DNA of 64,000 bases, taken from NCBI RefSeq assembly GCF_024298765.1, contig NZ_CP101211.1, one strand, 5' to 3'. Each line of letters starts with the position of its first letter. The stretch's first letter is position 1. Made by a program: the position numbers. The stretch comes from Escherichia coli. Its GTDB lineage: Bacteria > Pseudomonadota > Gammaproteobacteria > Enterobacterales > Enterobacteriaceae. This document shows, in pieces, positions 60,001 to 64,000 of this stretch.

Positions 60001-63000
60001 TTAATAATTTTTTTCATTTATGCTCCTTGAATCGAGCACTAATATTATCACGCCCAAAAATTCCAGAATTTTGCTTAAACGCTTAAATCAACGGGTAAAG
60101 CCGAAAGAAAGTCGATAGATATATGGGAGAATAGATAAAACGTAGATTCAGTGGAGAAATCGTTGTGTTTACACCACCAGCAGATGATGTGAAACCTATT
60201 CCCGTTCCTGATGAGATTTACACTCAGTGCATTACGGATGCCGCCCGCTTCTTCGGAATTGATGCCGAACTGGTTTTTACGTTGTTTGACAATGAAGGCG
60301 GTAAGGTTGGTACTTTCAGCAGGAATACTAACGGCACTTATGATATTGGCCCGATGCAGATCAACTCATCCAATCTGCCTGAAATAAAAAAGCATTTCCC
60401 GACTGTAACGTGGCGGGTTCTGGCTTACGATGCTTGCGCTAGTTTCTGGGTTGGAACATGGTGGCTCTACAGAAAAATTGTTGATCGCAAGGGCAATGTG
60501 TTTGAAGGGATTGCAGATTACAACAGCAAAACCCCAAAGGTACGTGCAAAGTACATATTTAACTTCATGGTAAAGTACAATCGCCGGATCCAGCAGCGTA
60601 ACGGGATGGGTGAGCTTTATCAATGGACCCAACAACCTCCTCGATACAATGGCCATATAGCTAAAAATGTCCCGGAGCAAAACCCGACTCCTGTTGTTAA
60701 ATAAATTCAACCTGATATTACAGAAGATCATCGAGTAGCTTGGGTACCCCCCCGCAAAAAATTCGCATAGACTCAGGGGTAATAAATTGTCTTTTTCTGC
60801 AAGAAATATATTTAAGATTCTCTCTTCTTTCTTGATGCAGAAAAGCCCTCTTCATGAAGAAGTATGTGTTCCTGAAGAAACAACAGCTGGTTTATGGGGC
60901 CCTCTCCCTGATTCGCATGTCGTGCTTTTCTTAGATTTCGATGGGGTTTGTCACAGGTGCAAAAATGAAACCTTTGAGCGAATGCCATTGGTGGAAAAAT
61001 TACTGGATAAATGCCCTTCCATGGTGATTGTCATCTCCAGTTCGTGGCGTGAATGTGCCAGTATAACTTACCTGAAATCTCTTTTCCGGCTACCTTATAG
61101 AGACAAAGTCATAGGTGCTACCGATTCGGTATATTTAAAACCTAATCAGTCAGGTGTGCGGGCTGCTGAGTGTGAGGACTTTGTATTTTCACATCGAGTT
61201 AAAGCATTTATCTGCCTTGATGACGACGAATCATTATTCCCGGTCGGTTATCCACATTTGCAAAAAACCAATTATTACACCGGCCTCACCGAATCTGATC
61301 TTGCAGCTCTTAACACCAGGTATCATCTGCTTATGAAACGTTGGGCTTCCTGAATTAAAGTAACTTTTACGGAGAGCATGCCCGCATTATCAGTTCTATG
61401 CTTCTCCATTTCTGCCCCGGGTCAAAGCATTGCACAGTTGGAAGAAAACATGCCGGTCTCTTAAGCTTGCTGCTCAGTTTGGTTCCGGTGCTGAAAAACC
61501 TGCCAACGGTGCTTTAGGAATTCAGTATTGATGGGTTTACGCAGCGGCTTAATAAACTCTCCTTGATATGCCGCTAAATCATGATCTACCGCCAAAGCTT
61601 CAGCGAGAATGTTAACCTCCAACGTCACCGGATGAATGGCAATCATGTTTGCGTCGAAAAGATCGTGTATATCATGGCGTAAGAGCAACCCATTTGTATA
61701 ATGGTCTACTCCTCCGTTACGATGCTCCATCAGATGAGCAGCCTCAGTGCGCTGGCGCAGTCTAGAGCCTGTAATCACACATTGGTCATAACAGTTGTTG
61801 CGGACGGCTTCTGCAAATGAGGCCTGATCTGGTCGTGTCTCGACAGTTGTCTTACTACCCTTACGCTTACCCGGTACAGTAGTTTCATCAGGAATATTCG
61901 GCTGAAGCTCCTTTTCTTCTATACCATCAGTCTTCATAGCGACCATAATCGCGGCCGGTGGAGATTTAGGCTGATCTTCCTGCGATCTTTCGCGGCCACC
62001 AACTGGATACCCTAGAAAACCCTCAATGATCTCTAGTGGAGGTAATGTAGCGTTTGAACGTGCATAAATAGCGAACTCTGCGGCACGTCCGCCGGGAATA
62101 TATCTACGTACCAGTATTGGAAGAGAGGCTTCTTCATCTGGTTCCTCTTTTTCCGACAGGATTATTCGTTCGGTGAGACGGGCTGAATTTTTTTTCATTT
62201 CACTCAACAGTCTATTGCGTTCTTTTACCTTTCGGTCATTATCCTCCAACATCTTACGATGACTAACCTTAGCCAGATGGTCTTCCAGTTCCTGTATATA
62301 TTCGGGATCGATAGTATCAATTAGACCGAACGCCATCAACCGCTCCCCCCTTGTTTTACAAGATTCTAGCCGAACGCGAATGTACTCCTTACGCTTGGCC
62401 ATCAAATGTTCTTTTTGTTTTTTTTCTCGAATTACACGGAGCTGAGTATTGTAATTAGAATAAACGGTTTCGCTATTCTGCTCTGTCTCTAGAGCAAATT
62501 TTTGTAGGTGTTCACGTAGTTTTTTACGGGTATTTTTGGGGGCATGCATTACGGTACGCTCAATGTATGAGCCTGTGCAGCGTAAAGAAAGTACAGTTTC
62601 AGCATGGGAATAACCAGCATTGAGACGATAGCGGGCAATTTTAAGCAAATTATTAAAGTGTGCACCATTACATATACCTAGTTCTTCCAAGACACGACGT
62701 TCTCTATCATTAATAGATGGATGGTTAATATCTTTTACTTTGTTTGCCATGTCCTGTGTCTCAGTGCCTATTCAGCCGGAACATCTACTACATAAAGAAC
62801 GAGATTGTACAGAAATCAGCTAAGTTTATGAATAAAAAAGGCCGCAAATTTATACTTTGCGGCCTTCACTGTTTAACACCATATTTTAGTAAATACGTTT
62901 AATTTTCATTAGGTTATATTTGAAACTCACCTACCTTTTATTTTCATTAAGCCACTGATCCGCTTTATCGACACGTGACTGGTAAGGCTCATTTGTGTTG

Positions 63001-64000
63001 CTCAGCTCTGACTTCATGTACTGAATGAATTCATCTGCTTTCTGAGGCCCAAAGCGTGGGTCATCCGTCAATTGCTGCCGGATAGCCCTTTCAGAGTTCT
63101 GCGCTGCATTCGCATAAGTCGAAACGCCGTCGCTGCTAATACTCTGATACCGGTCACTTACAGCTGCGACGCCATCAGACATCTGCATGTGATTAAGGAC
63201 TTTACCCTGGAGAGAATCAGGCATATTTGCAGGGTTAGAGGCATCATTTGCTATCGATGTCTGGGTTTGAAGGATGCCCGCTCCCGTAAGCATCTCATTT
63301 ACCGGTTTCGCCCCAACGCTGGTTAGCGTATCCGAAACAAATTGCTGGCCCCCGAGTAGCGCACCAGAAATCGCGCCCCGCTCAGTGTTGGCCTCTATCT
63401 TTTCCCCAACCAAGCGATCTGTGACGGTCTGAGTGCGGTTACCAACGAGACCACCGCCCGACCCACCCTCTCCTAGGTTTGCCCGTACGACTGACTCAAG
63501 TGAACCATCAGCTCTGTTATGAGTGTTGAAACTGCTATGGATGCTCTGAACGTCATTCATACTCCAGTTAACGTTATAGTTACCCAGTTCATTAAGGATC
63601 TTCTGGGTATCCGCTTTGAGCTGCTCTCTTTCGGCACCGGTAGCCATGGTGCTGGCACCATAGGTAAAGACAGCTTGCTGTGCCAATTCAGCTCGCTTAT
63701 CGTCCCGGCTTAAGTTCGGGTTGTTGGCAACACGACTAAAGTAGTTATCAGTGTTATTAGATAAGCCACGAACTTGACCGCTCTGATACATACTGTTCAA
63801 AGCAGTGGCTCGTTGATCCATTCCATCACCAACCACCCGACCTCCGGTAGCCTTTTCCAGATCGTTAAATGTGCCTTCTGCATTTCTGACATCCTGACCT
63901 GAATTGACGACTTTCTCTACACCCTGATTATTCAGTACAGGGCCATTCGTTTTGAGAGAATTGAGCACATTCCTTTCTTCATCAGAATAAGTGCGGCCCA

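Follow-up and report, generated by a model that had tools for sequence, protein, structure and literature searches.

A coding sequence (CDS) on the minus strand at positions 61461..62750 of a 64,000 nt stretch of Escherichia coli DNA (contig NZ_CP101211.1 of RefSeq assembly GCF_024298765.1; the whole of this stretch is referred to as the window) encodes a 429 aa protein in which an HNH_2 nuclease module follows a long, helical N-terminal region. On balance, we favour the view that this is an accessory, single-gene, restriction-like nuclease lacking a methyltransferase, which would serve in conflicts with phages or other mobile DNA, the N-terminal region setting the specificity for its target or trigger. 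The CDS, the coordinates of which include the stop codon, was taken from the list of open reading frames (ORFs) with an ATG start, and homologues retain the N-terminus from Met1 onwards. The protein is identical to WP_001284752, and a 100% identical gene is annotated in around 510 IncHI2 plasmid records in PLSDB; searches of the literature for its accessions, and for IncHI2 defence genes, returned nothing on this protein, and no second paralogue was found in the 64 kb of the window. A preliminary description of the same DNA had proposed a defence, anti-defence or transfer function. Of these, defence is supported, at the level of sequence, by the homology of the nuclease module to restriction enzymes and by the defence island contexts of homologues, whilst transfer is contradicted by the absence or replacement of the gene in related plasmids, and no positive evidence was found for anti-defence. 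The favoured reading also draws on the lack of an adjoining methyltransferase or immunity gene, and on the location of the CDS in its own terminator-insulated transcription unit.

The nuclease module (aa 294-429; 61464..61871, minus strand) comprises a helix carrying the motif 'RPDQ..F' and a beta-beta-alpha-metal core, and was delimited through Pfam, hhalign and profile matches. Pfam HNH_2 (PF13391) matches residues 324-373 with a score of 41.2 bits, relative to a cutoff of 21, and H339, N353 and H362, along with the flanking motif, are invariant both in ten homologues and in an alignment of 21 C-terminal sequences; hence the HNH motif originally noted at the C terminus is confirmed. The catalytic histidine, structural asparagine and metal-binding histidine of the beta-beta-alpha-metal motif are all intact, as is characteristic of HNH_2, group 6 of the His-Me finger superfamily. 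This group, also known as COG3440, consists of restriction enzymes, including HphI, BbrI and the SRA-HNH enzymes, in which recognition depends not on the His-Me finger but on N-terminal domains that are hard to predict (PMC5714182). When a profile of the 21 nuclease sequences was compared with the PDB, it matched VcaM4I (6yex) with an E-value of 2.6e-8 and, weakly, TagI (6ghs; E-value of 0.94). Homology to putative Streptomyces restriction enzymes of the PF26345-HNH_2 type extends over the C-terminal 125 or so residues (hhalign probability 98%, E-value of 1.3e-13, 124 columns), and NCBIfam NF045808, a phosphorothioate-DNA-binding restriction endonuclease model, gave a partial and weak match of 16.5 bits, far under its cutoff of 180; in both cases it is this module that is homologous, whereas the N-terminal domains are unrelated. 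PADLOC-DB v2 likewise yielded partial matches over the nuclease alone, to PDLC04132 'HNH' (E-value of 1.7e-5) and to a Type II restriction endonuclease model (E-value of 0.029), the PADLOC and PHROGs matches being confined to the C-terminal 130 aa or so.

Residues 1-290 matched nothing in Pfam, NCBIfam, PADLOC, PHROGs or the sequences in the PDB, in keeping with the earlier finding that the first 300 or so residues could not be placed. An AlphaFold2 (AF2) model based on an alignment of ten sequences, with a mean predicted local distance difference test score (pLDDT) of 66.5, is confident over residues 11-90 (pLDDT around 90), predicts a three-helix bundle at residues 205-246 (pLDDT 80-88) and leaves residues 252-309 disordered; the HNH core is poorly modelled, probably owing to the shallowness of the alignment. 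The remote homology and structural comparisons that had been proposed led to VcaM4I in the case of the nuclease, and to predicted helices with no informative neighbour in the case of the N-terminus.

The layout of this orphan region, all on the minus strand, begins with an N-module (aa 10-70; 62541..62723), a predicted four-helix bundle defined by the AF2 model and by its detection in distant family members. It is the best conserved part of the region and has a pLDDT of around 90 when the whole protein is modelled and 81 when the domain is modelled by itself, but no informative structural or sequence neighbour was found, a search of BFVD being equally uninformative. It is followed by a basic helical region (aa 72-195; 62166..62537) consisting of two long predicted helices, at residues 72-129 and 151-195, with net charges of +8 and +3, which form a putative coiled coil or spacer; one allele (P0002) has a 22 aa deletion within it. 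These modelled helices, rather than the output of a dedicated coiled-coil predictor, agree with the coiled-coil character previously ascribed to the protein. The isoelectric points (pI) of the N-module and long helices are 9.2-10.1. A middle module (aa 203-250; 62001..62144), recognised from conservation and the AF2 model, has an acidic lead-in and a predicted three-helix bundle with the motif 'LVRRYIPGG.AAEF...PL.IIEGFLG'; it is strongly conserved among full-length homologues and weakly detectable in the wider family, where it always lies just ahead of the linker, and no relative of it was found in the PDB. The linker itself (aa 251-293; 61872..62000) is rich in proline, glutamate and alanine, predicted to be disordered (pLDDT below 50) and variable in both length and sequence across the family. 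The possibility that the N-terminus is a sulfur-binding domain (SBD), or resembles PF26345, was rejected on the basis of an hhalign probability of 0.1%.

Relatives that match over the full length are very rare, and confined to the Enterobacterales: a profile of residues 1-250 retrieved only eight clusters from 1.84 billion cluster representatives, and all those with a named source came from this order. The same general layout can be followed in a broader group of enterobacterial proteins with this nuclease module: a four-helix N-module of about 55 aa, which is at times duplicated, then a stretch of basic helices, a three-helix 'YVRxxIP..F..WF' module, a linker rich in Pro, Ala and Glu, and HNH_2. 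When a seed hidden Markov model (HMM) constructed from close homologues only was applied to this group, it detected the N-module in eight distant proteins, always at their extreme N-terminal end, with E-values from 4e-6 to 4e-3; as controls, 21 Streptomyces HNH_2 proteins gave E-values of at least 2, and shuffled sequences at least 0.33.

The N-terminal region is also hypervariable. In a syntenic IncHI2-like plasmid (L005), in which 13 backbone proteins are 85-99% identical to those of the window's lineage, most of them 94-98%, the homologue (P0003) is only 57% identical, and all of this divergence falls in the N-terminal part of the protein. At the nucleotide level, the last 418 nt of the two genes are 87% identical, whereas blastn gives no alignment for the first 870 nt or so, or for the intergenic region upstream; the flanks are 90-95% identical, the downstream one approximately 90%. 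Two further homologues (P0009 and P0012) have differing N-termini despite occupying one slot in related phage-plasmid-like elements of around 100 kb, and each has a nuclease module with approximately 60% identity or less to that of the window's protein. Conversely, in P0049 and P0050 an N-terminus of the window's type is joined to other HNH_2 subtypes. The best reading of such rapid N-terminal divergence, as judged from these alignments, would be the signature of an arms race. The slot in the phage-plasmid-like elements has the order YafQ-like toxin, family gene, tail-spike, then GpA terminase and portal (L009 10001-11188; L018 10001-11416), and these elements also carry a giant protein of approximately 1980 aa and a NUDIX protein.

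Within the IncHI2 backbone, the HNH_2 gene occupies a variable slot as accessory cargo. The last 3.3 kb of the window recur at 100% identity in hundreds of conjugative plasmids of the IncHI2 type (MOBH, MPF_F), found in Escherichia, Salmonella, Enterobacter and Klebsiella, amongst which pEC71-IncHI2 has the gene order trhF-like thioredoxin, trhH, trhG, HNH_2 gene, a convergent HAD gene, lytic transglycosylase, DsbC/DsbA-like genes and umuDC. The IncHI1 plasmid pHCM1 and the IncHI1B plasmid pF418-IMP have these backbone genes as well; in them the HAD gene comes straight after trhG, with gaps of 247 bp and 372 bp respectively, and the HNH_2 gene is absent. Approximately 420 further IncHI2 records, including R478, have flanks that are around 94% identical at the nucleotide level but a different cassette in the slot, on the opposite strand. 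This encodes a 353 aa PF01844 HNH protein, unrelated in sequence to the window's HNH_2 protein, followed by a 168 aa protein of the YrhA family (NF038335), at L012 3769-5346 in pSTm-A54650 and L024 4688-6265 in R478; from its composition, the cassette looks like a nuclease toxin and immunity pair. Both cassettes share the same edges, the left lying just past the trhG terminator and the right at the 3' end of the HAD gene. The terminator is an intrinsic-type hairpin (62837..62867, minus strand) with a 12 bp stem, including six G-C pairs, and a T-run; it is also present in the R478 lineage, the sequences of the two lineages parting directly beyond the T-run. The gene flanking the slot on the right encodes a HAD_SAK_2 protein (60835..61353 or, in a longer delimitation, 60787..61353, plus strand; Pfam PF18143, E-value of 7e-20). 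As IncHI1 and IncHI1B plasmids have nothing in the slot, and the R478 lineage has another cassette there, the HNH_2 gene is not a component of the transfer apparatus. It also appears to be dispensable to the plasmid, since truncated or disrupted alleles occur: in some IncHI2 plasmids only the first 36-79 aa are retained, joined to unrelated sequence (P0052 and P0053), and in plasmid NZ_CP075378 (H78) an ISVsa5 element is annotated inside the matched 3.3 kb region.

The family of the window's protein is found almost exclusively on mobile elements, and several homologues lie in defence islands. That of Salmonella bongori (P0007) is flanked by a Type I restriction-modification (R-M) system and Mokosh MkoC (1693 bits), with a further HNH_2 gene close by, and one in S. 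enterica (P0008) adjoins a Type I R-M system and a NERD helicase. The Enterobacter homologue (P0004) is followed immediately by PifA (E-value of 2e-238), and Septu PtuA/PtuB and Gabija GajA/GajB lie no more than approximately 8 kb away. In Pectobacterium (P0005) the gene lies inside a small resolvase/integrase islet; P0049 is in an integrase-bearing element adjoining a type I-F CRISPR-Cas locus, P0050 is on a contig with the toxin-antitoxin genes PrlF/YhaV, ParE-like and TacA, and IMG/VR supplied the locus of one relative, which also bears an integrase.

In four independent loci (L003 9725-9997; L006 9716-9991; L014 9723-9998; L023 4245-4526), the HNH gene is directly adjoined at its 5' end by a member of a family of proteins of around 90 aa. 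The copies are 40-80% identical to one another, the HNH proteins with which they are partnered differ in N-terminus or HNH subtype, and the sole family match is a sub-threshold one to HTH_23 (E-value of 0.0015); they could be regulators or inhibitors. An obligatory small partner protein was nevertheless rejected, as this ORF is absent from the window, from both Salmonella islands and from the phage-plasmid slots.

The closest functional parallels are VcaM4I (EVE-HNH) and TagI (SRA-HNH), modification-dependent (Type IV) enzymes that are independent of nucleoside triphosphates and in which a modular arrangement of sensor and nuclease is typical (PMC7897488). Like the window's protein, these have in one polypeptide an N-terminal specificity region, a helical or linker part and a C-terminal HNH of the same subfamily, with no cognate methyltransferase. 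In VcaM4I the HNH domains mediate dimerisation, the HNH domain is non-specifically toxic when isolated, and a linker helix autoinhibits cleavage (PMC7897488). By analogy, the HNH_2 module would cleave DNA, probably as a dimer introducing double-strand breaks, and would by itself be non-specifically toxic; the orphan N-terminal region would restrain it and supply the recognition of a target or trigger, a role that would account for an N-terminus evolving and recombining far faster than the nuclease. The leading guess for the target, based on the Type IV enzymes, is modified DNA, such that in its simplest version the favoured reading describes an enzyme resembling those of Type IV, but equipped with a novel type of reader. 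Weighing against that version, a search of the N-terminus for the modified-base reader domains SRA, EVE, YTH, PUA, winged helix, SBD and NEco found none: unlike VcaM4I and TagI, the protein has an all-helical orphan N-terminus, in place of a PUA superfamily (EVE, SRA or YTH) or winged-helix reader, and this is, at around 290 aa, much longer, comprising two long helices and a linker that is Pro/Glu-rich and disordered. Consequently, we describe the protein as working like a Type IV enzyme rather than as a member of that class.

Other known systems bear a more partial resemblance. HphI and BbrI, Type II(S) enzymes of HNH_2/COG3440, belong to the same Pfam family but have partner methyltransferases, whereas the gene has none next to it in the window, and the same is true of the syntenic plasmid and of the phage-plasmid slots. 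END nucleases, which combine a phospholipase D (PLD) nuclease with an inactive endonuclease III (EndoIII), embody the same concept of a modular, single-gene, restriction-like defence nuclease lacking a methylase; they occur in defence islands and are missed by both PADLOC and DefenseFinder, and so provide a recent precedent (PMC12191111), although they have a different nuclease superfamily and sensor domain, and no relationship at the level of sequence. The HNH/YrhA cassette of the R478 lineage shares with the window's gene both the exact slot between trhG and the HAD gene and an HNH nuclease, but differs in being unrelated in sequence, on the opposite strand and partnered. A bolder possibility, which we hold only tentatively, is that the family represents undescribed single-gene immune nucleases restricted to the Enterobacterales, of which the window's protein would be the founding IncHI2 member, and in which an all-helical, recombining N-terminus would act as a new sensor for a cue other than classical base modifications, such as structures in incoming conjugative or phage DNA or a phage protein; different heads would be swapped by conjugative plasmids and phage-plasmids on a constant HNH_2 module at fixed backbone hotspots.

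A serious alternative, albeit an unlikely one, is that the protein is an abortive infection or 'guard' nuclease triggered by a phage or plasmid protein, or by another cue of infection, which would be sensed by the N-terminal helices and would release a non-specific HNH domain to destroy host and invader DNA together. Such a mode of action would fit an N-terminus with neither a DNA modification reader fold nor a clear helix-turn-helix, the hypervariability and recombination of which are typical of protein-sensing immune receptors, as well as the toxicity of the isolated HNH of the related VcaM4I and the proximity of the Enterobacter homologue to PifA, a classic abortive infection gene. However, the characterised close relatives of the nuclease module are all DNA-sensing restriction enzymes, and the basic nature of the N-module and long helices is consistent with nucleic acid binding. 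We give little credence to a free-standing homing or selfish endonuclease, which would spread by cleaving its insertion site wherever this is unoccupied, with no gain to the plasmid. HNH enzymes include many homing endonucleases, the slot is intergenic and flanked by conserved genes that converge, it is empty in sister groups of plasmids and has a different HNH cassette in one lineage, and relatives are found near structural genes in phage-plasmid-like elements. Yet a homing enzyme would be expected to conserve its recognition region, and here the presumed recognition part is the least conserved whilst the flanks, the supposed target, are nearly identical, making this explanation less likely; furthermore, HNH_2/COG3440 is the restriction branch rather than that of the known homing enzymes, homologues occupy different, unrelated loci inside defence islands, only a single relative was found in IMG/VR, and no empty slot was seen within IncHI2.

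The gene might instead contribute to plasmid competition or establishment, a form of anti-defence in the broad sense, if it were expressed in donors or in cells that have just received the plasmid, and there degraded host DNA, prophages or resident competitor plasmids. It is carried by a conjugative plasmid around 9 kb from the mobI/mobH region, proximal to the origin of transfer (oriT), and its family is almost wholly confined to mobile elements; but a terminator insulates it, its position is distal in the trhFHG operon, and it has no homology to any known anti-defence protein and has chromosomal homologues within defence islands, such that we consider an offensive role very improbable. Least credible of all is an accessory conjugation (Tra1) protein acting with TrhG, TrhH or the relaxosome. 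Although the gene lies directly downstream of trhG on the same strand, it is separated from it by a strong terminator, it is absent from the Tra1 regions of IncHI1 and IncHI1B plasmids typed as conjugative and replaced in R478, and homologues elsewhere are not linked to tra genes; a transfer function is therefore essentially excluded through comparative synteny.

IncHI2 plasmids are major vehicles of mcr-1, extended-spectrum beta-lactamase (ESBL) and other resistance genes. If the HNH_2 protein is a defence or exclusion nuclease, it could affect both the phages that are usable against IncHI2 hosts and the mobile elements that coexist with these plasmids, and it would represent a new sensor architecture amongst the single-gene restriction-like systems missed by current finders. 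The junction of trhG and the HAD gene is a newly noted cargo hotspot, in which IncHI2 lineages have alternative nuclease cassettes; it is a possible lineage marker and a place to search for genes involved in conflict.

The gene upstream of the HNH_2 CDS (62931..64000, minus strand) was identified as trhG from the annotation of identical plasmids and from synteny, and hence the adjacent genes are a known transfer gene and an uncharacterised, plausibly defensive one. The preliminary description had presented this neighbour as a large, Ser/Gly/Asn/Gln-rich, low-complexity protein with its 5' end beyond position 64000. The enrichment is real, at 35.8% for these four residues in the portion within the window, and the gene does run past the window's end, but the composition falls short of true low complexity and the protein is not an unknown one. 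The sequence beyond 64000, supplied by the identical plasmids, shows that the window contains the C-terminal 355 aa of a 1317 aa TraG_N-family TrhG; these 355 aa have no Pfam match themselves, TraG_N (PF07916) being recorded on a 96% identical 1317 aa orthologue, and the trhF-trhH-trhG synteny is maintained in IncHI1, IncHI1B and IncHI2. As TrhG is a characterised F-type mating pair formation protein, the idea that this gene might be a novel defence or anti-defence function did not hold. The hairpin terminator predicted between the two genes was found, however, on the minus strand at 62867..62837, within the 180 bp gap upstream of the HNH_2 CDS; the downstream gap is 107 bp. Also in the upstream gap is a promoter-like site for the HNH_2 gene, TTCATA-17-TACAAT (62804..62832, minus strand), although its 9/12 match in a consensus scan does not exceed the expectation from shuffled sequence and is suggestive only. 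No LexA box was apparent by eye in this promoter, and no partner ORF, methyltransferase or immunity gene was found beside the HNH_2 gene in the window.

The HAD_SAK_2 family is that of the 'Swiss Army Knife' RNA-repair HAD proteins; the gene at the right of the slot also matches phrog_1818, and adjoins the lytic transglycosylase gene in every IncHI backbone examined. Just past its stop codon, in every IncHI lineage, is the motif AAAAGTTACTTT (around 61354-61372 in the window, L020 7195-7311 and L021 7330-7434), which may be a conserved terminator or protein-binding site at the right edge of the slot; IncHI1 and IncHI1B have a second, inverted copy approximately 70-90 nt away. The plasmid backbone extends from around position 52,554 of the window, positions 1 to approximately 53,400 being an IS26-rich multidrug resistance mosaic, with at least ten copies of IS26, that is collinear with pEC71-IncHI2 in blocks only. 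Outside the window, IncHI2 and IncHI1 plasmids encode a second, short HNH protein (202-236 aa), with a C-terminal domain 42-44% identical to that of the window's protein, beside an hns-family gene (L010 6797-7405; L011 6791-7501).

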